A DNA stretch of 64,000 nucleotides from a virus. The number at the start of each line of letters is the position of its first letter. The stretch's first letter is position 1. A model generated the notes under the pieces. That model saw only the letters and a list, made by a program, of their open reading frames with translations. It made no database searches and had not been told where the DNA came from. The stretch spans positions 96,001 to 160,000 of the IMG/VR virus record IMGVR_UViG_3300009103_001934. One strand, given 5' to 3'. Position numbers and translations under genes: made by a program. Below are positions 19,621-33,014 of this stretch, piece after piece.

Positions 19621-20031
19621 ATGGAAAACAACGAACTATCAAAAACGGAAAAGCTCGACGTAGCACTCCAAAGTCATAAGTTCTACAATCACCAGTGCGT
19701 AGAATTAGAGAAGAAAATCAACATTAAGATTGATAGCATTTTTCAAACAGAAGAAACAGGAAAGAATATAAGTAAGAAAGATATTTTCGAGACGGTTGGT
19801 TTGGTAAATCAACTACTCTCCCTGTCAAGTAAGTATATGATGGAAGGCAAAAATGTTGTAAGTGAGTTAGAAAAAGTAGACCCAAAAGAAATTGAAGCGG
19901 ATTTTGCAAAAGTAATGAAAAAGCAATTAACCGCGATGAACGAAAAACAAGAGGCAATTCACGATAGAGTGAGAGAGATACAACAAATGCTGATTGAGAT
20001 GTATAATGTTGATGAAGATGATACTTTTTAG
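19621..20031 (+). CDS. Hypothetical coiled-coil protein
   Basis: AT-rich helical ORF between rIIA and rIIB. Confidence 0.7.
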   Translation: MENNELSKTEKLDVALQSHKFYNHQCVELEKKINIKIDSIFQTEETGKNISKKDIFETVGLVNQLLSLSSKYMMEGKNVVSELEKVDPKEIEADFAKVMKKQLTAMNEKQEAIHDRVREIQQMLIEMYNVDEDDTF

Positions 20032-21788: not shown

Positions 21789-21981
21789 CCCATCTCCACT
21801 GGAATGTCAAGAAAAAAATGCCCCAGACCCGTCCTTGAGAATGAGTCTCATTTGCGATTTTTAAGAAAATAACAAAGAAAAATGCTAATTTTATTCATTT
21901 TAATAATTTTAATTGCAATTATAGATATTTTTACGAATAATCTTGACACAAATTAGGAAATAGTTCAATATATTTAATAAC

Positions 21982-22221
21982 ATGACTGCTCCCAAAAAGA
22001 AAACCAAGAAAAATAAATATAAGTTAGATGAAGCTGGACTAAAACTCGCCCAACGCTACGAAATGGCATGGCATAAGTTGTTTTATTCTAAAAGTAGATG
22101 GACACAAGAAGAAATAATTAATGAGCCGCATGGTAGACACGCGAATGAGTTTGCCAAGGAAGTAAGAAGGATGGCAGAGAACAATAGTATAGATATAAAA
22201 GTAAGTGGGAAGATTTATTAA
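21982..22221 (+). CDS. Hypothetical protein
   Basis: Promoter TTGACA(21943)-17-CAATAT. Confidence 0.6.
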   Translation: MTAPKKKTKKNKYKLDEAGLKLAQRYEMAWHKLFYSKSRWTQEEIINEPHGRHANEFAKEVRRMAENNSIDIKVSGKIY

Positions 22222-22283
22222 ATTTAATTTTATTATTTTATTTACTTGACCTCAACTTGGATAACCCTTATACTGGTTGAAGG

Positions 22284-22571
22284 ATGAACGAAAAGAAAAA
22301 ACGTAAATCGGGTGCGGGTCGGAAGAAAGGGAGCGTTAGCTTCTGTATGGTTCCCCTCACAGAGTTAGTATCCAAACTGCCTAGCGGGGCAATTATCGTA
22401 GTGAGTAGGAAGTTCTGCGAATCTATGGGTATCGAGGGGCAACCTGTCGTATCCACGCCGACCATGATGATGCCTCTTGCTACTGCTGCCAAAGCTAATG
22501 CCGTACAGGTTACTGACTTGAATGAAAGTAAGAAAGAAACCGCGCCAGACTTTAGCGTTGACAACTGGTAA
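22284..22571 (+). CDS. Hypothetical protein with basic SGAGRKKG DNA-binding-like N-terminus
   Basis: Promoter TTGACC(22246)-17-TATACT(22269). Confidence 0.65.
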   Translation: MNEKKKRKSGAGRKKGSVSFCMVPLTELVSKLPSGAIIVVSRKFCESMGIEGQPVVSTPTMMMPLATAAKANAVQVTDLNESKKETAPDFSVDNW

Positions 22572-22594
22572 GAAATCCCTTACAATTAAAGACG

Positions 22595-23569
22595 ATGAGT
22601 GAAACCTACTTCCCAGATATAATTGGTCAGAACCGTGTCAAAAAAGCGTTGGGCTTTTATATTGACGGTTATCAAGAAACGAATTGCATACCGCATCTGA
22701 TGTTTACTGCACCTCGCGGGTGCGGCAAGACTACGATGGCAACTGCTATGGCAAAGAACCTTGTTGGGCCTGACGGTGCGATTAAGCCTCTTATTACTAT
22801 CAACTGTTCTACCATCAAGAGCCTCAAGCAGTTTTTCAATATGATTGTGATACCTCATATGGTTGAGCGTGATGCCACCGTGCTGTTTGACGAATGTTCT
22901 GAATTGCCCAAGGATGTGACGATGGCACTACTGACCATCACCAACCCTAATCCAGAGAACCAGAACGAGTTCTCCTATGAGGACTATAACGTGGTGTTTG
23001 ACTTTCGCCGCTTGAGCTTCATGTTCGCCACTACCGAAGGGCAAAGTATCTTCCATGCACTCATGGACAGAATGGAGCGCATCGACTTGGAAGAATATAA
23101 GTTAGATGAACTTGGTAAGATTGTGTTGCTTGGATTAGACGGTTATACTGTCGAGCAAAAAACGCTAGAGAGTATTTCTAACGTCCTGCGAGGCAACGCC
23201 CGTGCTGGTCAGAAAATGGCGATGAAGATGCGCCTATACCTTGATGCTAAAGGTCAGACTCATTTTGCCGACAAGGATTGGAAGGAACTTATGGACAAGC
23301 TCGGTATCCTGCCGCTTGGCATCTCCGTCCAAGAACTCAACCTCATGCGTTACATGGCGCGGAAGAAGGCAACTCGCCTTACCGAACTCGCCGCAATCAC
23401 TGGACTCTCCAAGGGAGCAATCCAAAAAGATTATGAGTTATATCTCTCCAAAATGGGTCTAATGGAGATACAACCAGAGGGTCGCTCCCTCACAACAAAA
23501 GGATTGGAGTATCTTAATGACCTCGATGGAGTTAAAAAGAACAAGTCTAACAAGGCTAGTAAAAAATAA
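22595..23569 (+). CDS. ruvB: RuvB-like AAA+ ATPase (Holliday junction branch migration)
   Basis: FPDIIGQ, Walker A APRGCGKTT, Walker B LFDE, FATT, Arg finger DR, C-terminal winged helix ending PEGRSLT.KG..YL. Confidence 0.8.
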   Translation: MSETYFPDIIGQNRVKKALGFYIDGYQETNCIPHLMFTAPRGCGKTTMATAMAKNLVGPDGAIKPLITINCSTIKSLKQFFNMIVIPHMVERDATVLFDECSELPKDVTMALLTITNPNPENQNEFSYEDYNVVFDFRRLSFMFATTEGQSIFHALMDRMERIDLEEYKLDELGKIVLLGLDGYTVEQKTLESISNVLRGNARAGQKMAMKMRLYLDAKGQTHFADKDWKELMDKLGILPLGISVQELNLMRYMARKKATRLTELAAITGLSKGAIQKDYELYLSKMGLMEIQPEGRSLTTKGLEYLNDLDGVKKNKSNKASKK

Positions 23570-23597
23570 ATATAAAATAGATGATGAGCCTATACGG

Positions 23598-23819
23598 ATG
23601 TCTGATTACGAATGGCGCGGCACATTAAATAATAGTGATTTATTTGTAGTTATTAAATATAACCTTGGTGCTTGGAAAGTAAAATATGCTGAAACAGAAT
23701 ACGATCTAAATAATGTAGATTATATATATGTAGCGCAAGAATGGAGTCCGATGAAGTATATTATAAATAAAGATAAGATAGAAATAAATAACTTAATAAC
23801 ATTTTTAGGATGGAAATAA
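23598..23819 (+). CDS. Hypothetical protein
   Basis: The track ORF 23517..23819 actually reads on the + strand. Likely start is MSDYEW at 23598. Confidence 0.55.
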   Translation: MSDYEWRGTLNNSDLFVVIKYNLGAWKVKYAETEYDLNNVDYIYVAQEWSPMKYIINKDKIEINNLITFLGWK

Positions 23820-23866
23820 ATAAAAATAAACTTGAATTTAGTCAGGAAGTAGGCTAATATATAGAT

Positions 23867-23938
23867 GTGGGTGCAACGCCCACAGTTCGTTCATCATCAT
23901 CGAATCCTCCTGCGGGAAACTGCGGGGGGATTTTTTTT
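23867..23938 (+). ncRNA. Candidate 72-nt trans-acting sRNA
   Basis: Own promoter TTGAAT(23832)-17-TAATAT(23855), 5' hairpin, unpaired core AGTTCGTTCATCATCATCG, 12-bp GAAA-capped terminator plus T8. Confidence 0.65.
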
Positions 23939-24197
23939 GTATTTTCTTTAAAACAGTGTAAATAATAATAAGACCTTGCTAAATAAATAAATAAGGCAAG
24001 CTCAACAGGTTATGTTCAAATAAGCTTTGTAGAATAGGTTCGTCAAATATAGAACTGAAATAAAGTAAAAATAAAACAGGCCCAAATAAGGTAAGGTTTA
24101 AACTAAATGAGAGTCAATCTCAACGTCCCTCCTTTATGCTAATGAGACTCATTCTCAATTTCACCGGTCCCGATGTTGGCAATCAAAATTCCAAGAA

Positions 24198-24280
24198 AAT
24201 GATCGACAAACTATTTTGCCGCTCACGAATGATCGACAAACAAATTTGCCAATCAAAATCTTCCCAAAATGATCGACAAA
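24198..24280. repeat. Three direct repeats AATGATCGACAAA
   Basis: Copies at 24198, 24228 and 24268 (30- and 40-bp spacing). Confidence 0.9.
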
Positions 24281-24332
24281 AAAAAGTAAAAAAAGGCTTG
24301 CACTAAAATGGGATGTACGGTATACTATTAAA

Positions 24333-24785
24333 ACAGTGAGGGTAACACCTCCACGATCTTTGAGACAATTTAAGAAGGCGACTGTGGTAGTCCTCACGCA
24401 AGTGAGTGCCCTCGCGGGAAAGCCCCCAGTGGAAGCGCGACGAAACTGGACGGTGATACGATACCGGAGGGATGGGGTTCGACTCCTCACGCCCTAACAA
24501 TTTAAGCCTTGGGTGACGGAACAAACGTCCGACAGAGGAAACGGCCCAAGCAATTTTTACTCCGGCGACGGTTGGAGTAAGGGAATGGCTGAATAACCCT
24601 CCATCATAAGGGGTAAGGCACAGGGCCGCGCGTTAGAGTGCAATCGTATGAGGCGCGTGGTTCTGGTAGACTGGTAAACTTGAACTGTATTGTGCACTGG
24701 TCTTGATGGTAATGCAGCAATCCATCTTCCCATTAATTTAGCATAATCCTGAGGTTGGTGAAAACCATTAAAGAGATATTAAGCA
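24333..24785 (+). ncRNA. Candidate structured ncRNA(s) containing a tRNA-like T-arm
   Basis: Promoter TTGCAC(24298)-17-TATACT(24321), no + strand ORF, many hairpins with GNRA loops, T-arm TGGGG-TTCGACT-CCTCA. Confidence 0.55.
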
Positions 24786-24835
24786 ACAACGCCGAAATCC
24801 GCCTCTGATTTTTTTTGCCCTAATGTTAATTTTTT

Positions 24836-24873
24836 GCTTGACACGCCGGGACCGGTCCCGGCGCCTGTCAAGC
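24836..24873. repeat. Module A1: GCTTGACA-CGGGACCGGTCCCG-TGTCAAGC
   Basis: Core at 24847-24860, T-tracts on both sides, DnaA box at 24879. Confidence 0.95.
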
Positions 24874-25137
24874 TTTTTTTATTCACAGCCTGTGAGAATT
24901 TCTTAAAAAGGGGCGATTTCTCCGGTGTGAAATTCGGCGTATATAAGAAACTATTTGACCCCATACCCTGCAAAAACAGTGTCAAGCTCAAAAACAATTA
25001 CCCTATATAAACGCATTTAATTAGCCTAATTAAAAAAGATGTGTGTGACGTGCATTTTTTTCTTGCCAGTGATTAGGAAGTGTGAGATAATGGTTTTAGT
25101 CGATTGAGACATAACTACTAACGAAAGAGAACGAACT

Positions 25138-26073
25138 ATGCCTATTACCGCAAAACAAAGCAAAAACAAAGATTGGGATTTCACCGTAGCACAGGAGGAG
25201 CTTTTCCTGCCTGACGGCAAGAAGTCCGGTTTCTTCGCGTCCCGCCGCCTCGACAACAACGAGGTGCTGGGCTGTCACACTAGCCGCTACGGCATCGTCC
25301 AGAATGGCGACCTAGTGGAAAAAGCCGAGAGTGCTTTTCGCCGCAAGGGATTGGGCGATTTTGAGCGCAACATCTATGTGACTGACGGCGGAGCCAAGCT
25401 GCGCGTCAATTACGACTTCCAAGGTCACGATATTGAAGTGCCAGAAGTGGGTGACAAGATGGGCTTTCGCCTGACCTTGCAAAACTCATTTGACCGCTCG
25501 CTGCGCGTGTCCTTTGCGCTCGGTATGCTTCGCCTCGTTTGCACCAACGGTATGCAGACGCTCGAAAAGGAATTGGATATGCTCAAGAAGCACTCCAAGA
25601 ACTTTGACCTCGGCGCGTTGCTGACTGATGACGCAATCGACAAGGCTATGGCTACGTTCACCAACACGGGGAACACATACGCCGCGCTGGCTCGCGTTGG
25701 AGTTACTCAAGAGCAAGGCATCTTCGCCCTGCAAAACCAAGCCAACACTGGTTTGATTTCTGACAAGGTGCGCGAGGGTATCGCAAGCGTGTGGAACAAC
25801 CCACGCGAGGATGGTGCTGACGGTTCGGTTGGTGATGACCGCAACCTCTACCAACTCTACAACGCTGCCACGCAGTACCTCACCAGTGACAACTTGGTTG
25901 ACAAGAAGTCTGGCGATGCTGTCGGCACGTTCGAGTCCACCCGCTTCGAGTACGCGAACCGCGTTAGCTCGCAACTGCTCAAGCGGTTCAACCTCGCCAG
26001 CGACAACCCCAAGCGGTTTGACAAACTGGTTGCGGTTGCCAAGGCTGACGGCGTAAAGGTCGAGAACAACTAG
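25138..26073 (+). CDS. DUF932-family phage/plasmid protein
   Basis: YGIVQN, QNSFDRS, RLVCTNG, LYQLYNAATQY. Promoter TTGCCA(25063)-17-GATAAT(25086). Confidence 0.8.
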   Translation: MPITAKQSKNKDWDFTVAQEELFLPDGKKSGFFASRRLDNNEVLGCHTSRYGIVQNGDLVEKAESAFRRKGLGDFERNIYVTDGGAKLRVNYDFQGHDIEVPEVGDKMGFRLTLQNSFDRSLRVSFALGMLRLVCTNGMQTLEKELDMLKKHSKNFDLGALLTDDAIDKAMATFTNTGNTYAALARVGVTQEQGIFALQNQANTGLISDKVREGIASVWNNPREDGADGSVGDDRNLYQLYNAATQYLTSDNLVDKKSGDAVGTFESTRFEYANRVSSQLLKRFNLASDNPKRFDKLVAVAKADGVKVENN

Positions 26074-26089
26074 GCCAAACCTACAAACA

Positions 26090-26117
26090 CCCCCCGCCTT
26101 CGGGCGGGGATTTTTTT
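26090..26117 (+). terminator. Intrinsic terminator
   Basis: CCCCGCC-TTCG-GGCGGGG followed by a T-tract. Confidence 0.9.
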
Positions 26118-26136
26118 GCGATTGTGGAAACTTTTT

Positions 26137-26175
26137 GCTTGACATTCGGCGGGACCGGTCCCGATTTTGTCAAGC
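26137..26175. repeat. Module A2
   Basis: Core at 26150-26163. Confidence 0.95.
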
Positions 26176-26241
26176 TTTTTTTGTGCGTTTGCGAATAACT
26201 TTCTTCTTGACGTAAAAGCGGATGTGTAGTACTATATAAAC

Positions 26242-26478
26242 ATGATGAACGAATTAGATCAACTCAAAGAAGACATTTGCATGAAGAGCTTCGGTCGCAG
26301 CCGAAGTCTCGCGCTAGCCGCAGGGCAGTGTGTTAAGTGTGGAACCTATGACCTCGACTTTCGCGATGAACCATCGCAACGTGAGTACAAACTCACCGTG
26401 TGGTGTCAGTCGTGCCAAGACGATTTCTTCGGGCTGGATTCGGACGGTGAAATCGCATGGGAGGAGGATGAGGATTAA
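26242..26478 (+). CDS. Small CxxC...CxxC zinc-ribbon protein, leaderless
   Basis: CVKC and CQSC. Promoter TTGACG(26207)-17-TACTAT(26230). Confidence 0.7.
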   Translation: MMNELDQLKEDICMKSFGRSRSLALAAGQCVKCGTYDLDFRDEPSQREYKLTVWCQSCQDDFFGLDSDGEIAWEEDED

Positions 26479-26990
26479 TGGATATCGCAAACACACTTAA
26501 GCGCGAGGTCTATCGCAACCTTCACTTCAGGAACGAGACCGTTTATTCTGTACGTAAGGAAGGCCTTGTAGAGGGGCATGCCCTGATGGTCATCATGGAC
26601 GGAACGACTAAGACCCCAATTAAGTTTGCGGTCGGCCCTAAGGGCAACCAGCGCGTACGTGATGAAGAGCGCAAGAACGTGCACGCTGTTATCCGCGGGC
26701 ACATCAACAACGCCGTGTGGTATACAAGTGACATGGATGTGGATGCATTCGAAATGGGTCATGCTAAGGATGCCTGCGAGTACTTTAAAAAACAGTACAT
26801 GATCGAGCGTGAGGGATATCGATGGCTTGAGGTTGTATATAATCCTTACAAGTACCGCACCTTCATGACTCGTGACACGGATCCTTTCAGATCGAATGAA
26901 GACGTCTATGAGCCTATCTTTACCGCTCGCACAGTCATCATCGGCGAGACGTGCTGGGCGCAAGTCCGGGCGGAGCACGAGATGAATTAA
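26478..26990 (+). CDS. Hypothetical phage protein
   Basis: VYRNLH, RVRDEERKNVHA, YNPYKY. Confidence 0.75.
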   Translation: MDIANTLKREVYRNLHFRNETVYSVRKEGLVEGHALMVIMDGTTKTPIKFAVGPKGNQRVRDEERKNVHAVIRGHINNAVWYTSDMDVDAFEMGHAKDACEYFKKQYMIEREGYRWLEVVYNPYKYRTFMTRDTDPFRSNEDVYEPIFTARTVIIGETCWAQVRAEHEMN

Positions 26991-27005
26991 TATTTTTCCT
27001 CCATC

Positions 27006-27052
27006 AGGCGGGTCCGGGTTTTATGTGTTTGACCGGGCCCGCCTACTTTTTT
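27006..27052 (+). terminator. Intrinsic terminator
   Basis: AGGCGGGTCCGG...CCGGGCCCGCCT followed by a T-tract. Confidence 0.8.
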
Positions 27053-27090
27053 GCTTGACATTTCGGGACCGGTCCCGCGGCTTGTCAAGC
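27053..27090. repeat. Module A3
   Basis: Core at 27064-27077, TTATCCACA at 27096. Confidence 0.95.
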
Positions 27091-27166
27091 TTTTTTTATC
27101 CACAACCTGTGAATTATTTTTTCATTTTTTTCTTGCCTTTTTCTGCTCAACCTGTATAATGCTCGC

Positions 27167-27295
27167 ATGAAGATTAAAGCAAGAGTAAGCAAACAAGGAT
27201 TTATGGGCAGCGCGTCCCGTGAACACAGAGTGAAGAAGGGCAAAGGCTCTTTCACTCGCAAACAAAAACACAAAAAAAGTATTGACACAAACTAG
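27167..27295 (+). CDS. ArfA-like 42-aa peptide (not in ORF track), leaderless
   Basis: MKIKARVSKQGFMGSASREHRVKKGKGSFTRKQKHKKSIDTN carries the ArfA signature KKGKGS[YF]xRKxKH. TATAAT at 27155. Confidence 0.7.
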   Translation: MKIKARVSKQGFMGSASREHRVKKGKGSFTRKQKHKKSIDTN

Positions 27296-27314
27296 GATAT
27301 AGGAGATAATCATA

Positions 27315-27746
27315 ATGATGATGGACGATATAAAACTGACCTACATTCCAGACTCTCACGACTGGATTAAAGTATATTTGCAAGCACCTAACGCAGAACT
27401 TGCCGAGGCGTGGTTTAATTCCTTTTGGAATCACAACGCTACAAGCCAAGACGAGCCAGAATGGATATTCAAAAACGAGTTGGCATTTTGTACCACTTGG
27501 GACAAGCTAACCAAGGCCATGAATGATATTTTTCTTTTCATCCTTCTTAATGATGATGAAGATGCTTTCAAAGGCGAGGAAGGCGGCGCGATGCCGTTTG
27601 CCAAGGAACTAGCCAAGGCCAAGATTGCAGAGATGAACAAAAAAGATTCATCCATGCGCTACGGTCGCCAAGGTCACGTTTACACACTCGGCGATGTTTA
27701 CACCAACGAGGAAAAGTCATTTTCTTCTGGAACGTGCGACGTTTAA
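27315..27746 (+). CDS. Hypothetical protein, leaderless
   Basis: Promoter TTGACA(27282)-17-GATAAT(27305). Confidence 0.7.
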   Translation: MMMDDIKLTYIPDSHDWIKVYLQAPNAELAEAWFNSFWNHNATSQDEPEWIFKNELAFCTTWDKLTKAMNDIFLFILLNDDEDAFKGEEGGAMPFAKELAKAKIAEMNKKDSSMRYGRQGHVYTLGDVYTNEEKSFSSGTCDV

Positions 27747-27783
27747 GCTTGACCTTTAACCCTCAAACCTTTATTATACTCTG

Positions 27784-28497
27784 ATGTTGAAATTCAAAGA
27801 TGCAAACGGTAAACTCAAGAAGATGGCAAAGAAGCTTGGCGTTAAGCTTAAAACCTTCACTCTCCCTGCGGGCTATACTTGCGGCGGTGCAAAGGATTGC
27901 CTCGCGTATGCCGACAGAAAAACGGGCAAAGTGAGAGACGGCAAGGAAACACAATTCCGTTGTTTCATGGCATCGCTCGAAGCCACCTTTCCAAGTCTCC
28001 GCGCTATGGTGTGGGAGAATTACGAGCAGTTACAAGCGGCACTGAAAAACGGCGTTGATGCTTGCGCGGATCTGATCCACAACAGCTTGCCAAAGAAGTT
28101 TGACGTAATGCGCGTTCACGTTGGCGGCGATTACTTCAGCAGGGCGTATTTGCAAGCGTGGATTGAAGTTGCCAAGCGAAACCCTGACAAGGTGTTTTAC
28201 TCTTACAGCAAAAGCTTGCACCTGTTCAAGCAATTTGCGTTACCGGAAAACCTTGTGTTGACCGCTTCCCGTGGTGGCAAGTACGATGATTTGATTGACC
28301 TCCACGCATGGAAAGAGGCGATTGTCGTATTCAGTGAAGAGGAAGCGGAAGAGCTTGACTTGGAAATTGACCACGACGATTCACACGCAGCGTTTGGCGC
28401 GGAGAATTTCGCGTTACTCATTCACGGCACACAGCCAGCAGGGAGCGCAGCAAGTGAAGCTTTGAAAGTCATAAAGAAAAAGGCAAGGGCTGCGTGA
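27784..28497 (+). CDS. GP88-like Cys-containing phage protein
   Basis: LPAGYTCGGAKDC, FRCF, RVHVGGDYF, FYSYSKS, IDHDDSHA. Confidence 0.65.
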   Translation: MLKFKDANGKLKKMAKKLGVKLKTFTLPAGYTCGGAKDCLAYADRKTGKVRDGKETQFRCFMASLEATFPSLRAMVWENYEQLQAALKNGVDACADLIHNSLPKKFDVMRVHVGGDYFSRAYLQAWIEVAKRNPDKVFYSYSKSLHLFKQFALPENLVLTASRGGKYDDLIDLHAWKEAIVVFSEEEAEELDLEIDHDDSHAAFGAENFALLIHGTQPAGSAASEALKVIKKKARAA

Positions 28498-28570
28498 TGG
28501 AATTTATTGTCCTTGTTGCCATCGGGTTGTATTTCGGCGCAAAGCTTAGTCGATAAAAATGACATTTTTT

Positions 28571-28610
28571 GCTTGACAGCCGGCGGGACCGGTCCCGCGA
28601 GATGTCAAGC
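28571..28610. repeat. Module A4
   Basis: Core at 28584-28597. Confidence 0.95.
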
Positions 28611-28701
28611 TTTTTCTTTGTTATTTTTTTATTTGACACAAAGTCGGAAGTGGGGTATTATATAAACAGTGCGAACGAACTAACTAAAACTAAAAAAACT
28701 G

Positions 28702-29169
28702 ATGAACAACCTACATTCATATACTAACTACATCACTGGCACAGAACTTGAGAACGGAAAGATTCTCCTGTATGCTGGCAAAACACGCAACGGTATCGAT
28801 GACCGTAAGAAAGGCAAAATGGCTTGCGGATTCATCGCTGGCGTTGGCCTAGATGGTCGTCTGTTTGACACCGTCCATTCTAACACTAACACCAAAAACG
28901 ATAAGCTCACGGAGCAACGTCACATCAACACGATTCGTGCCGTGGCGCAATTACTCCCTGACGTTATCGTTGCTGGTAACACTTATGACGATGGATTTTA
29001 TGGGGGAATCATTTCGTCCATCAGTCCTAGCGTCTACGACAAAGTCGTAAGCTGGGTACAGGGTACGCGCACTATGACAGAAAAGCGCATGGTGGCGAAC
29101 AAGCGAAAGCTGGCTCGAAAGCTCGCTCAAGTGAAGCGAGCTAGGCAAGCAAAGAAGGCTTTGGCTTAA
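28702..29169 (+). CDS. Hypothetical protein with basic C-terminus
   Basis: Promoter TTGACA(28633)-17-TATTAT(28656). Confidence 0.7.
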   Translation: MNNLHSYTNYITGTELENGKILLYAGKTRNGIDDRKKGKMACGFIAGVGLDGRLFDTVHSNTNTKNDKLTEQRHINTIRAVAQLLPDVIVAGNTYDDGFYGGIISSISPSVYDKVVSWVQGTRTMTEKRMVANKRKLARKLAQVKRARQAKKALA

Positions 29170-29269
29170 CCCTAGTAGGGGGGAGAGAGTTTGGCGTGAA
29201 TGCTTCGCCTCTTGAGTGGCTCTCTCCCCTCTTGACTTTTCAACAGAAACCCATTATACTTTTATACTT

Positions 29270-29743
29270 ATGGAGAGAATACATATAATTATTGGATTGA
29301 TAATCTTCTTTATTATTAGCATAACCGCTTCGGGCGATGAAGTCTTAACAAGGGACGAGCGTATTGTTGCACTCACTATACTGGGAGAAGCCCGTGGTGA
29401 AGGTAAAAAAGGAATGTATGCTGTCGCCTGTGTAATTCAGAAACGCGCGTCAGAACGCAACCTCACGCCAGCAAAGGTATGCCACCAACCTTATCAGTTC
29501 AGCATTTGGAACGCTGGAAAGGGTAAGATAAAAAAAGAAAGTGAGTTGTATTATTTGTGGAAATCTAAATCCATGATGTACGCCAGAGAGTTAGCGAGAA
29601 CAGTTTGCAAAGGTAAATTGTTAGATCAAAAATTCACTGGTAACGCAAATCACTATTGCAGAAAAGAAATCAATAACTATTGGACAAAGAAAGGAACAAT
29701 AACAAAGGTAATTGGAAATCATAAATTTTTCAAATTACGATAG
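29270..29743 (+). CDS. Cell wall hydrolase, SleB/Hydrolase_2 family, with signal anchor
   Basis: ALTILGEARGEG, AVACVI.KR, PYQFS.WN, IGNHKFF. Promoter TTGACT(29232)-17-TATACT(29255). Confidence 0.85.
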   Translation: MERIHIIIGLIIFFIISITASGDEVLTRDERIVALTILGEARGEGKKGMYAVACVIQKRASERNLTPAKVCHQPYQFSIWNAGKGKIKKESELYYLWKSKSMMYARELARTVCKGKLLDQKFTGNANHYCRKEINNYWTKKGTITKVIGNHKFFKLR

Positions 29744-29772
29744 GCTTCAAATAATAAATCAGTGCAAATATG

Positions 29773-29838
29773 ACCCGTCCCGAATAAGGGGCGGGTTTTT
29801 TTAGGGCAAAAAAAAGGCCCGCTTTCGCGGGTTGTGTT
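29773..29838. terminator. Back-to-back terminators for convergent genes
   Basis: CCCGTCCC..GGGGCGGG-T7 on +, and A8-GGCCCGC-TTTC-GCGGGTT read on -. Confidence 0.75.
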
Positions 29839-30044
29839 TAGCCCTCCAAACTGGAGGGGGTGAAATCACCGTGTCCGGTGATCTCAAGGGCACGCCCGTG
29901 ATCATACTCACGGATATGCTCCTCGCGCATCCGCACGGTGCGACCATCATCCTTGAGGATGAGCCACTTGCCGTGGCGCGGAGAGGCGGCGACCACGCCA
30001 ACGTAACCGTTGACGTCTTCGACTTCCATTCCTAATGTAATCAT
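29838..30044 (-). CDS. Small SH3-like hypothetical protein
   Basis: GMEVEDVNGYVGVV pattern. Confidence 0.55.
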   Translation of the reverse strand: MITLGMEVEDVNGYVGVVAASPRHGKWLILKDDGRTVRMREEHIREYDHGRALEITGHGDFTPSSLEG

Positions 30045-30095
30045 AATGATATTGATAGGGCGCGAATTCTTAGGCAGTCGCGCTCGCCCATGATG

Positions 30096-30305
30096 TTAGT
30101 CCTTCCAGACCATGTCCAGATATTCACCGTAAGTAGCAAGGTAATCCTGCCATTCGGTGTCCGTCATTAGCGGCCCATGGATTGCAACCAGATTCGCCCA
30201 ACGATCTTGGGTTTCCTGTTCGCGTGTCCACTCTTCATGCTCAAGCTGAGCTTCGATGTCTGCACTTATGGTCTCTTCTATGGTTGGCATCATGTCGTTC
30301 ATCAT
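30096..30305 (-). CDS. Hypothetical protein, leaderless (MMND...)
   Basis: Minus-strand promoter TTGTGC-17-TATATT, with ATG 7 nt downstream. Confidence 0.65.
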   Translation of the reverse strand: MMNDMMPTIEETISADIEAQLEHEEWTREQETQDRWANLVAIHGPLMTDTEWQDYLATYGEYLDMVWKD

Positions 30306-30394
30306 TAGAAAGAATATAACACGCATCTAAGAAAAGCACAAGGAAAAAATTCAAAAACTATTAACAAAAAAAATGCAATTGTGAGCAAAAAAGA

Positions 30395-30455
30395 CTTGAC
30401 AGCCGCGGGACCGGTCCCGCTTATTGAGACCGAGTCTCACTAAAGTTGTGAATAA
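30395..30455. repeat. Module B1: CTTGACA-core-TGAGACCGAGTCTCA-TGTGAATAA
   Basis: Core 30406-30419, 7-1-7 box 30425-30439, DnaA box 30447-30455. Confidence 0.95.
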
Positions 30456-30498
30456 CTTTCTCCTTGACAATTACATCCTTTTGTAGTATATTATTTAC

Positions 30499-30687
30499 AT
30501 GATGAACGATCCATATAGCCAGATAACCAGCGGAGACCGTGACAACCTGCGTGCGGAGTTTGACGAACAAATGGCGATAATTGACGGCGCGAATAACCCT
30601 GACATGATTTGGGTTCGTGGCACCCTGCCCTATGATGATGAGGGTGTACGGTGCGGGTGCGAAGACTACCCCTGTTGTGGGCATTAG
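30499..30687 (+). CDS. Small protein ending CGCEDYPCCGH, leaderless
   Basis: Promoter TTGACA(30464)-17-TATATT(30487). Confidence 0.65.
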   Translation: MMNDPYSQITSGDRDNLRAEFDEQMAIIDGANNPDMIWVRGTLPYDDEGVRCGCEDYPCCGH

Positions 30688-30707
30688 TAACTTGTGAGTA
30701 AAAAAGA

Positions 30708-30764
30708 CTTGACAGCCGCGGGACCGGTCCCGTTGAGACTCAGTCTCATTAAGATTGTGAATAA
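30708..30764. repeat. Module B2
   Basis: Core 30719-30732, 7-1-7 box 30734-30748, DnaA box 30756-30764. Confidence 0.95.
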
Positions 30765-30815
30765 CTTTTTGAAAAAACCGCTTGACTTTTTGGCATTTAT
30801 GGGTTATATTTAAGC

Positions 30816-31049
30816 ATGATTAAAACGAACATGAAAACTTACAACGTAGAGTTTACGACAGCATTCGCTGGCTCTCCGTTCGTCAACATCGTTCTTGAAG
30901 CCAAGGACGAAAAACAAGCTGAATGGGTTGCCCGTAACCTTTGCCGTTTCGGTTACATTAGCAACATCACAAAAACTGATGAAGTTGCTGCTTTTACCGA
31001 AGAAACTCACGCTTTTGCTTATGATGAAGATTATGAGATTTATTCATAG
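30816..31049 (+). CDS. Small protein, distant paralog of 32802 and 33941 ORFs
   Basis: YNVEF...IVLEAKDEKQAEWVA. Promoter TTGACT(30782)-17-TATATT(30805). Confidence 0.65.
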   Translation: MIKTNMKTYNVEFTTAFAGSPFVNIVLEAKDEKQAEWVARNLCRFGYISNITKTDEVAAFTEETHAFAYDEDYEIYS

Positions 31050-31085
31050 GTGGGACTGCGGATGTCCCACCCAGTATGCTATACT
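31049..31085 (+). promoter_or_regulatory. Palindrome-type promoter P1
   Basis: GGTGGGAC-N7-GTCCCACC-N8-TATACT with TG extension. Confidence 0.7.
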
Positions 31086-31091
31086 AGACGC

Positions 31092-31547
31092 ATGATAATT
31101 AAGAACGAGATGAAAGAAAAACTAAAACCACTATTTGACCTAGACGGAACCCTTATCCGCGAGGAGCGCGGCTCAGATCGCCTATTTGATTTCCTACGGC
31201 CTCACGCTATTCTTAATCTCACAGAACACGACCTCACTCCTCTCGGAGTGTTAGTCAGAGACTCAGGCAAAGAATTTGACATTCTTACAGCACGCGGCCC
31301 AGAGAATGCGCAGTTTATCCGTATAGCTCTTGAAGCTCTCGGATTCAACGTCGGTCGAATCGTAACCGTAGGCGTAGACATTAACGAGCCAAAGGATTGG
31401 GCTAATGTTAGCAGCAAAAGAGTAGCGGCAAAGAAAATCAGAATTGCCAAATTCGTCCAAAGGAAATTGGTTGACAACGATGCTAGGAATCTGGTAGGAT
31501 TAGGAGAGTTAGGAGAGCTAGTAGCTCAAGACCAAACAGAGTTTTAA
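31092..31547 (+). CDS. HAD-superfamily phosphatase-like protein, leaderless
   Basis: LFDLDGTL, ILTARG, LVDND. Confidence 0.75.
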   Translation: MIIKNEMKEKLKPLFDLDGTLIREERGSDRLFDFLRPHAILNLTEHDLTPLGVLVRDSGKEFDILTARGPENAQFIRIALEALGFNVGRIVTVGVDINEPKDWANVSSKRVAAKKIRIAKFVQRKLVDNDARNLVGLGELGELVAQDQTEF

Positions 31548-31548
31548 G

Positions 31549-31803
31549 ATGATGAATAAGATTATTACAATTAAAGCAAAAGCCAACGCAAGCCGGCGCA
31601 CTAAAAACCGCATTCGTGGATTTGGCCCACGTTTCATCGTAGAGAAGAAACATGACCTTAATGACATCATGGCCCTTATCGGCAAGCGTGATTCAGAGTC
31701 TTGGTTGCTGCGCGAAGTGGGCGGCCCAGACGGTGATCCGTGGTTTGGCTGGCTGCCAGCTAATGAATTTGAAATTGTTGAAACTGAAGGATTTTGGTCT
31801 TGA
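31549..31803 (+). CDS. Hypothetical protein
   Basis: SRRTKNRIR..G, WFGWLP. Confidence 0.65.
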   Translation: MMNKIITIKAKANASRRTKNRIRGFGPRFIVEKKHDLNDIMALIGKRDSESWLLREVGGPDGDPWFGWLPANEFEIVETEGFWS

Positions 31804-31836
31804 CATTTAATCGGAAAACCCATATACTATAAACAG

Positions 31837-32061
31837 ATGATGAAGAAACACAACATACAAAACGCAAGCGTATTTGCCACAAAGCAATTACGCGACAATC
31901 TTAACAAAGTGCTTACTCGCAAAGAGCGGCAACAACTTGACGAAAAAGATGCTAAAACAAAATGGTATCTTGAATTGATGATTGCTGCTTGTCTCGGTGC
32001 TGCTCTTGCCCTTGGCTTTGTAGTCGCTCACGGTATGCTCACAACTGACTGGACTTGGTAA
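31837..32061 (+). CDS. Small protein with C-terminal TM
   Basis: Promoter TTGACA(31800)-17-TATACT(31823). Confidence 0.65.
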   Translation: MMKKHNIQNASVFATKQLRDNLNKVLTRKERQQLDEKDAKTKWYLELMIAACLGAALALGFVVAHGMLTTDWTW

Positions 32062-32067
32062 AGAACG

Positions 32068-32178
32068 ATGAAAACACTATTCGAAGCAATTGACTCCCTT
32101 GTGATGCCACTCACATTCTTTATTATGATGCACCTTGTTGTGCTTTACATTATTATTCCTTTAATTATTTGGCTTTAA
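32068..32178 (+). CDS. 36-aa TM peptide (not in ORF track)
   Basis: MKTLFEAIDSLVMPLTFFIMMHLVVLYIIIPLIIWL. Confidence 0.5.
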   Translation: MKTLFEAIDSLVMPLTFFIMMHLVVLYIIIPLIIWL

Positions 32179-32192
32179 CAAAAAACAAACCT

Positions 32193-32309
32193 ATGCAAAC
32201 TAAAACAAAAAAAGATTGGACACAAGCTCTGTTTGTGGGAAACATCGCAACCGTAACATTTATTGTCGGCGTGATCGTCGGTCAATTTGTCAAAGTCATA
32301 ATTATGTGA
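32193..32309 (+). CDS. 38-aa TM peptide (not in ORF track)
   Basis: MQTKTKKDWTQALFVGNIATVTFIVGVIVGQFVKVIIM. Confidence 0.5.
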   Translation: MQTKTKKDWTQALFVGNIATVTFIVGVIVGQFVKVIIM

Positions 32310-32429
32310 TTTTGATAGGGGTCTGAAAACCTACGCTTGAGCCTTTGAGGTCTGACCTGTAGCGACACAGCGTGATGACTACGACCCCACCCCCCTAGGG
32401 GTACCCCCCGGGGGGGGTCTAAACTTTTT

Positions 32430-32476
32430 GCTTGACATCCGGCGGGACCGGTCCCGCTTATTGCGACTCGGTCTCA
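32430..32476. repeat. Module B3
   Basis: Core 32443-32456, degenerate 7-1-7 box 32462-32476. Confidence 0.95.
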
Positions 32477-32502
32477 GTAAAACTTTTTTTAATTATCTTA
32501 TG

Positions 32503-32539
32503 GGTAGGACTGCGGATGTCCCACCCTCTGTGCTATACT
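32503..32539 (+). promoter_or_regulatory. Palindrome-type promoter P2
   Basis: GGTAGGAC-N7-GTCCCACC-N8-TATACT. Confidence 0.7.
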
Positions 32540-32545
32540 ATACGC

Positions 32546-32749
32546 ATGATGATTAAAGAAGATAAGAAACCAACATACACCCTCTGGAACGGTGTGCAAC
32601 TCATCGCCACCTACCCACACACACGTGAGGGCATGAATGCAGCCATGCTACGTGCATCAGAGCTAGGCATAGGGGCCAAGCTATACTCATCACGTGATGA
32701 CCTAGTGTGGAGCGCACGCATGGCAGATGACATGATGGATTGTGAATAA
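32546..32749 (+). CDS. Hypothetical protein, leaderless
   Basis: ATG 6 nt after TATACT. Confidence 0.6.
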   Translation: MMIKEDKKPTYTLWNGVQLIATYPHTREGMNAAMLRASELGIGAKLYSSRDDLVWSARMADDMMDCE

Positions 32750-32801
32750 CTTTCTTAAAAAACCGCTTGACTTTTTGACATTAATGAGCTATATTATACG
32801 T

Positions 32802-32978
32802 ATGTTAAACAAGATAGAAAGCATATTCACAGTAACATTCACCAACGACAGTACCGTGTTCATTAAGGCAAGGGATAGGGGACACGCGCGCCGCATCGTG
32901 GAGCGGAACGGTAGCACATGGACACGCGCTGATGAGAGCGTTGAAATGGTGATTAAAAAAATTGAAAGAAGTTGCTAG
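32802..32978 (+). CDS. Small protein, paralog of 33941 ORF
   Basis: FTVTFTNDSTVFIKARDRGHARRIVE. Promoter TTGACT(32767)-17-TATATT(32790). Confidence 0.7.
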   Translation: MLNKIESIFTVTFTNDSTVFIKARDRGHARRIVERNGSTWTRADESVEMVIKKIERSC

Positions 32979-33014
32979 GTAGGACAGCAGATGTCCCACC
33001 TCGTATGCTATACT
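32978..33014 (+). promoter_or_regulatory. Palindrome-type promoter P3
   Basis: GGTAGGAC-N7-GTCCCACC-N8-TATACT. Confidence 0.7.

Follow-up and report, generated by a model that had tools for sequence, protein, structure and literature searches.

Does the short element at positions 23832-23938 of this phage genome encode a regulatory RNA, and if so, which messages does it act on? A preliminary description had proposed a small RNA (sRNA) antisense to the start regions of about ten early genes, acting as a master translational off-switch for the early regulon. The window in which the element lies is a stretch of 64,000 nt (bases 96001-160000) from an IMG/VR virus record of 178,487 bp, complete according to CheckV. 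It comes from an uncultured marine T4-like phage of virulent type (178 kb), and its genes include rIIA, rIIB, an ATP-dependent DNA ligase and a RuvB-like AAA+ protein. The closest named phage is Ruegeria phage RpAliso, with an identity of only 29% in rIIA, and megablast and blastn searches of the sRNA region against 50,697 phage records returned no relevant match.

From ~21.9 to 33 kb, the window holds a dense block of small genes, each with its own TTGACA-17-TATAnT promoter. The ATG in this early block follows the -10 box by 4-9 nt, with a modal spacing of 6 nt, so that the mRNAs should be leaderless. Many of the early genes open with a doubled or tripled ATG, both here (21900-33000) and in related contigs (L008-L010, L138, L140 and L141), and the near-all-leaderless early architecture is common to relatives without the sRNA too. 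An almost entirely leaderless set of early genes is unusual, and this feature of the phage group merits its own description. Between gene cassettes, just past TTGACA, lie GGGACCGGTCCC palindromes (at 24847, 26150 and other positions up to ~33800), terminator-like hairpins that overlap the -35 boxes.

Anatomy of the sRNA unit

The element begins with a sigma70-type promoter on the + strand (23832-23860), made up of TTGAAT at 23832-23837, a 17-nt spacer and TAATAT at 23855-23860, and placed 12 nt past the end of the upstream gene, whose stop codon is at 23819. A 5′ hairpin (23867-23883) starts at the predicted transcription start, 7 nt past the -10 box; its arms GTGGGTG and CGCCCAC (23867-23873 and 23877-23883) form 7 bp around a CAA loop. 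There follows a single-stranded seed, AGUUCGUUCAUCAUCAUC (23884-23901), with an unpaired probability of 0.85-1.0 per base. The core singled out in the preliminary description, AGTTCGTTCATCATCATCG, spans 23884-23902, and the predicted unpaired length is 17-18 nt. An intrinsic terminator (23902-23938), identified by a terminator scan, closes the unit with a 14-bp stem (23902-23915/23920-23933), a GAAA loop and U8.

The predicted RNA is ~72 nt long and is ordered as hairpin, unpaired stretch and terminator; its fold has a minimum free energy of -35.1 kcal/mol (z = -4.8), and the genome carries one copy. Promoter, hairpin, core and terminator all lie where they had been placed at the outset, and at the sequence level the locus has the promoter and intrinsic terminator of an independent non-coding unit. 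The terminator probably also ends read-through transcripts of the upstream RuvB-like operon. The RuvB-like gene (22595-23569, + strand) carries the PHROGs label clamp loader and the domains PF05496, PF00004 and PF05491, its product ending in the RuvB C-terminal winged-helix domain. With more than 1,200 metagenomic homologues, this protein is a good marker of the phage group.

The DNA downstream of the unit has features of its own. Directly 3′ of the terminator, CAGTGTAAATAAnTAATAAGGACTTGC is followed by a short hairpin (23952-24010). This arrangement is found in both clades described below (L136 at 11379, L138 at 5481) and in L140 (6811), which is without the sRNA. Upstream of a DUF932 gene, TGATCGACAAA occurs in three repeats with TTTGCCGCTCACGAA close by (24176-24290); the repeats are conserved in distant relatives (L140, 6990-7020; L141, 12490-12560), and the set looks like an array of protein-binding sites. 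Next, at 24298-24550 (+ strand), comes a TTGCAC-17-TATACT promoter and then a GC-richer, helix-rich stretch with a tRNA T-loop-like GGTTCGACTCC; in the whole window, ARAGORN called neither a tRNA nor a tmRNA. This stretch may be a further non-coding RNA, upstream of or continuous with a manA RNA (RF01745) at 24558-24736 on the + strand (77.9 bits; gathering score 55.2). The manA RNA lies between the sRNA and the DUF932 gene, in a 1.2-kb stretch without a convincing open reading frame.

A conserved structure with two seed types

Three IMG/VR relatives, reached via the neighbouring RuvB-like protein, have an invariant promoter and core and show compensatory changes in both stems. A metagenome scan with the 18-mer core gave more than 119 stretches, with 23 further distinct true homologues among the matches listed. 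The related contigs come from marine metagenomes, Tara Oceans among them, and the sRNA family is abundant there (more than 25 contigs among the matches listed).

We aligned 24 distinct homologues and compared the alignment with 500 shuffles and with slid controls. Across the alignment, 95% of the pair cells are paired and 9 of the 21 pairs change on both sides, a level of pairing and covariation reached by 0 of 500 shuffles and by none of the slid controls. Pairing is complete in the 5′ hairpin (100% of pair cells in the 24 sequences, with 4 of 7 pairs changing on both sides) and stands at 92.6% in the terminator stem, where 5 of 14 pairs change on both sides. The promoter is near-invariant among the 24. 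The commonest pairs include several U.G or G.U pairs, which on the opposite strand would be A.C mismatches; because they are valid on the + strand only, the structure belongs to that strand. A self-contained unit of promoter, covarying hairpins and terminator is thus kept in 24 or more homologues as well as in a second clade, and the locus is very probably a real RNA gene.

Most homologues in the clade of this phage (clade A) were found via the seed itself, so that its invariance can be judged free of this bias in six sequences only. For this unbiased set, contigs were fetched through homologues of the RuvB-like protein and searched with a covariance model. Clade A (85-94% protein identity; L002-4, L146 and L147) has an identical seed, GGUUCGUUCAUCAUCAUCGAAUCC, and the seed is the same in all six clade-A homologues found via the neighbouring protein. 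Clade B (68-75%; L136, L138 and L142-145) has the promoter-hairpin-seed-terminator unit at the same place, with a TTGACT-17-TATAAT promoter and hairpins that are strongly diverged yet compensated. Its seed, UGUUUGUCUUCAUC, is related but distinct, and is invariant in six loci. Within each clade, then, the seed is invariant while the stems vary, and the accessible seed is better conserved than its flanks. We conclude that this is a genuine new family of phage sRNAs with two seed types.

More distant relatives, L140 and L141 (60-63% protein identity), have no sRNA unit at the syntenic site, and L140 still carries the flanking CAGTGTAAA...TAAATAAGGA element. Two weak covariance-model matches in these contigs were rejected. 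The match in L141 (18702-18795, E 0.065), which had resembled an sRNA beside a complementary start, is the 3′ end of a called 98-aa gene with its terminator, and the match in L140 (E 0.13) is a terminator only. Scans of IMG/VR with a 25-mer core, the promoter, the RuvB-like protein and the clade-B seed returned the same three relatives or nothing relevant; a looser core pattern gave three chance matches (L130-132), and no long clade-B contig was found there. The GTDB genome set held zero matches to the core. At gathering thresholds, Rfam 15 gave the manA RNA alone in the window and placed the sRNA in no family. In a permissive scan of 23500-24300, the best score on the sRNA was that of rli38 (RF01470; 28.4 bits against a gathering score of 49, E 0.1), and the PyrR binding site (RF00515) reached 22.6 bits against 54 (E 1.2). 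Both matches fall mostly on the terminator hairpin, and the sRNA is a member of neither family.

Seed complements at leaderless early starts

To what does the exposed seed correspond? By chance, ATGATGAACGA, an 11-mer, should occur ~0.09 times in 357 kb (both strands); it was seen three times, apart from the sRNA's own antisense. All three sites (26242, 30499 and 30305 on the - strand) are starts of leaderless ORFs, 6-7 nt past a -10 box. The three IMG/VR relatives have two or three ATGATGAACGA sites each, and those within the fetched regions are at leaderless starts. Matches of 9 nt are near chance level genome-wide, with GAACGAACT and GATGATGAA individually at chance.

Counting duplexes of -14 kcal/mol or better as strong, we found them at 6 of 13 early leaderless starts versus 0 of 15 leaderless candidates elsewhere. 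The seed is enriched at phage starts relative to shuffled controls: 0 of 500 full shuffles attained six strong starts (p < 0.002), and shuffling the flanks only, with CAUCAUCAU held fixed, gave p = 0.002. In all three clade-A relatives the mean duplex energy beats that of shuffles (p 0.002-0.042), and the count of strong sites is significant in G003 only (p 0.008; 0.052 in G001 and 0.11 in G002). The clade-B seed, assessed on its own genome (L138), forms strong duplexes at 4 of 9 starts (p < 0.002). When the whole sRNA is cofolded with the first 50 nt of each mRNA, the predicted duplex begins at the mRNA 5′ end, with a ddG of -14 to -19 kcal/mol for six genes versus -4 to -11 for five leaderless control genes.

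Of 12 early leaderless genes, 4 have AACGA immediately after the last ATG, a sequence outside the top ten five-base continuations at 182 starts genome-wide, and the Asn codon in the motif is always AAC, compared with 37% AAC across the genome. The sampled 16-21 kb loci of L140 and L141, which are without the sRNA, contain no ATGATGAACGA and, among a dozen or so leaderless starts, a single good site. L140 does share AACGAACT, the match in the DUF932 leader, despite its missing sRNA, which weakens the regulon idea.

Because of its CAU repeats, the seed should bind any AUG-proximal sequence with some affinity. In one alternative, the main targets of a real sRNA would be host mRNAs, with their AUG and purine-rich codons, and the matches at phage starts a by-product of shared AUG-proximal composition. 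Both seeds keep CAUC and are U/G-rich, properties of promiscuous binders of AUG-proximal A-rich sequence, and seeds A and B obtain similar scores when each is set against the gene starts of the other clade. Host genes are frequent targets of known phage sRNAs, and a lambda sRNA described in a preprint appears to be an example (10.1101/2024.10.31.621285). However, with CAUCAUCAU held fixed the order of the other seed bases still matters at phage starts (p = 0.002), and exact matches of 11-14 nt occur solely at the 5′ ends of leaderless phage genes. That the core occurs in no GTDB bacterial genome says nothing on host targets. We consider host messages unlikely to be the main targets, and turn to the phage genes.

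Candidate target genes

All of the complementary matches listed in the preliminary description exist (22283, 25129, 26242, 27315, 28673, 30305 on the - strand, 30499, 31548, 31836 and 33047), as does an internal match at 19935. The figure of about ten targets was nonetheless generous: at five sites (22284, 26242, 27315, 30305 on the - strand and 30499) the mRNA 5′ end pairs without interruption over 10-14 positions, 31837 is a marginal case, and all the others are matches of 9 nt.

Two of the five better sites allow 14 pairs. The gene at 26242-26478 (+ strand) encodes a zinc-ribbon-like protein of 78 aa (MMNELDQL...); it is leaderless, with a TACTAT -10 box 6 nt before the ATG, and its 5′ end, AUGAUGAACGAAUU, pairs over 14 bp (ddG -16.4). 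The gene at 27315-27746 (+ strand; MMMDDIKL, 143 aa) is likewise leaderless, with 14 pairs including one G.U (ddG -18.8); in this family the site is lost or interrupted in G002 and G003. Leaderless genes at 30499-30687 (+ strand; MMNDPYSQ, 62 aa) and 30096-30305 (- strand; MMNDMMPT, 69 aa) pair over 11 bp each, with ddG values of -14.8 and -14.6, and the MMNDMMPT orthologue on the + strand of G001 has the same start. At 22284-22571 (+ strand), the near-leaderless gene for a basic protein (MNEKKKRK, 95 aa) has 10 bp (GAUGAACGAA; ddG -14.3), and its relatives carry AUGAGCGAG, still with 10 pairs thanks to G.U. The weaker candidate at 31837-32061 (+ strand; MMKKHNIQ, 74 aa) has 9 bp plus an extension (ddG -15.8).

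On inspection of the translations, the candidate-target proteins are unrelated to one another, and a Pfam search gave no family match for them; we therefore rejected paralogy as the source of the shared starts. Two observations concern the surrounding genes. The MMNDMMPT gene and its promoter are on the - strand in the genome studied here and in L129 and on the + strand in G001 and G002, as for the copies at 30096-30305 (-) and at 8355 in L008 (+), so that a small early-region cassette has been inverted. A leaderless 42-aa ORF (MKIKARVS..., 27167-27295, + strand) that is kept in relatives matches Pfam ArfA (PF03889) with E 2.3e-4 and 21 bits, under the 25.5-bit cutoff, and is a possible phage-borne alternative ribosome-rescue factor.

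The zinc-ribbon gene at 26242 appears, from sequence comparison, to be the best conserved candidate target. In 17 relatives, a zinc-ribbon MMNEL(D/E)QL gene lies 360-420 nt downstream of the sRNA, and 12-14 bp of pairing with the seed are kept in 17 distinct variants. Only three of its first 14 nt are variable, with A/G opposite U or C/U opposite G, compared with at least seven of the next 14 (17 distinct sequences); these pairing-neutral substitutions are transitions, the commonest changes anyway. As to seed-target covariation, put forward at the outset as a check, target changes within clade A keep pairing, and there is no clean covariation between clades A and B. The clade-B neighbour start, ATGAACGAAC, pairs at -18.7 with the clade-A seed versus -13.6 with its own. 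Starts resembling ATGAAGACAAAC are complementary to the clade-B seed, and its exact complement is absent from the available 15-kb loci.

Such close linkage could mean that the sRNA is a dedicated regulator of the adjoining MMNEL zinc-ribbon gene, in the manner of a type I antitoxin, and that the other matches are incidental. The 17 clade-A relatives with their 12-14 bp argue for this, and the adjacency persists in clade B (L144). In the window, by contrast, a 2.3-kb insertion parts the sRNA from the zinc-ribbon gene; the zinc-ribbon start pairs more weakly with the clade-B than with the clade-A seed, and four or five unrelated genes have equally good sites. The neighbour (67-79 aa, with CxxC...CxxC motifs) is acidic, soluble-looking and without any hydrophobic stretch, matches no toxin family, and is thus no small membrane toxin of the kind that defines type I toxin-antitoxin systems. 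A role restricted to this gene seems to us quite unlikely.

Alternative readings: operon end or open reading frame

The position of the element, 12 nt past the upstream stop codon, raises another prospect: it may be no regulator at all and simply form the 3′ end and terminator of the RuvB-like operon, its resemblance to starts being a relic of an inverted copy of an early-gene start. The terminator must also end that operon, and the - strand does read AGGAGG, 5 nt and ATGATGATGAACGAA, a complete start region. A dead copy would decay, however, and here the seed is invariant in two clades, the stems are compensated and the promoter is conserved. Furthermore, the - strand ORF is frameshifted by indels, and CCUCC-to-CCUCU changes are compensated in the stem. 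We regard this explanation as very unlikely. The same changes led us to reject the idea that CCUCC and CAU together mimic an anti-Shine-Dalgarno sequence and an initiator anticodon, because CCUCC is hidden in the terminator stem, where it changes along with its pairing partner.

The preliminary description had named a conserved, translated 28-codon ORF as the finding that would speak against an RNA, and the homologues favour the RNA. On the + strand, MWVQRPQFVHHHR (28 codons) is without its ATG in 22 of 24 homologues, which have ATAGTGG in place of ATGTGG. The - strand offers MMMNELWALHPH (MMMNE..., 20 codons), which has AGGAGG 5 nt ahead of its ATG and which we dropped as a product in view of its frameshifts and of the strand-specific G.U pairs. 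That either ORF, both being present in the window, encodes a small protein as the conserved product is extremely unlikely, given the lost ATG, the one-base indels that at two places shift the frames of both, and substitutions that compensate pairs (CCUCC to CCUCU among them) and do not respect codons.

A proposed mode of action

With the locus read as an RNA gene, its most likely function would be that of a trans-acting base-pairing sRNA of ~72 nt that limits the translation of a subset of leaderless early mRNAs, a proposal whose chances we put at about even. We infer that the sRNA is expressed and pairs in vivo, and likewise the direction and timing of its effect. Host RNA polymerase would transcribe it from its own sigma70-type promoter, alongside the early mRNAs, and read-through from the upstream RuvB-like operon would probably also yield it as a 3′ end. 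The product would consist of a protective 5′ hairpin, then 17-18 exposed bases, and then the terminator with its U8 tail. These exposed bases would act as antisense to the 5′-terminal 11-14 nt (AUGAUGAACGA...) of some of the early mRNAs.

According to a review (PMC9031893), 70S ribosomes must bind the 5′ AUG of a leaderless mRNA. As the sRNA accumulates, it could pair with the 5′-terminal AUGAUGAACGA and bury the AUG that 70S ribosomes need, and a double-strand RNase might in addition attack the seed-target duplex. Five or six small early proteins, the zinc-ribbon protein above all, would then be made in smaller amounts or for a limited time. Whether the sRNA does act on these phage 5′ ends we judge, from complementarity and conservation, to be evenly poised.

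The broader claim of a master off-switch for the early regulon goes further than the sequence data. A subset of early starts is indeed complementary, and statistically so, but only 5-6 of ~13 leaderless early genes have a good site. The idea is weakened further by the 27315 family, which loses its site in relatives, and by the clade-B neighbour, which pairs worse with its own seed. Since the sRNA and the early genes have similar promoters, nothing in the sequence implies that an off-switch would come late, and a self-limiting pulse is equally possible. We therefore regard the target idea as plausible for a handful of leaderless early genes, and 'master switch' as overstated.

Relation to known systems

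In its architecture the phage sRNA is like the seed-type bacterial sRNAs of the RybB, MicC, SgrS and GcvB class, being ~70-80 nt long with its own promoter, a conserved single-stranded seed and a U-tailed terminator. As with those sRNAs, several unrelated mRNAs share a short complementary site at the translation start. Unlike them, it comes from a virulent-type T4-like phage, and it has no sequence or Rfam relationship to them. It is predicted to pair at the very 5′ end of leaderless mRNAs, with AUG at +1, rather than at the Shine-Dalgarno sequence as in the RybB/MicC class.

Other phage RNAs that pair with start regions include P22 Sar, P1/P7 C4 and lambda OOP, of which C4 acts in trans. A phage-encoded small RNA of lambda is the subject of a preprint (10.1101/2024.10.31.621285), and an sRNA of the ICP1/PLE system is described as acting in trans and regulating several phage genes (10.1101/2022.04.08.487710). 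These RNAs come from temperate phages or from satellites; the majority are cis-antisense RNAs or aim at a single gene or at the host. Here, in contrast, the sRNA is predicted to target several leaderless early genes of the very phage that encodes it, and it has no sequence similarity to Sar, C4, OOP or the lambda and PLE sRNAs. The type I antitoxin RNAs IstR-1/tisB and OhsC/shoB offer a further likeness, an sRNA beside a small-protein gene with short complementarity to the 5′ part of its mRNA. They differ in that the neighbour here is acidic and zinc-ribbon-like rather than a hydrophobic toxin, that the sRNA and this gene are in tandem on the same strand, and that there are further, unlinked candidate targets.

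In T4, the protein RegA is a translational repressor of many early mRNAs, and the nuclease RegB cuts early-mRNA start regions. The role proposed here would be similar, in that one factor would recognize a short sequence shared by initiation sites and turn down many early messages. RegA and RegB are proteins and the phage factor is an RNA, so the analogy is functional only. A RegA family search gave no match in the phage genome, a weak negative given that control genomes yielded none either. More tentatively, and with the chances somewhat against it, the sRNA may be an RNA counterpart of RegA that covers the 5′-terminal AUG and the next three codons. Selection for pairing would then have shaped the MMNE/MMND N-termini of unrelated early proteins, and the second seed of the sister clade would be likewise enriched at its own early starts.

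Few small RNAs are known from lytic-type phages. In the literature we found no report of a lytic-type phage sRNA that acts on a set of its own early genes, nor of a bacterial sRNA shown to cover the 5′-terminal AUG of leaderless mRNAs. If the proposal is true, the sRNA would let these phages shut off early genes in a simple way that needs RNA alone. The sRNA would also be a natural tool to control leaderless translation, and an example of a regulator that constrains the nucleotides of protein N-termini.
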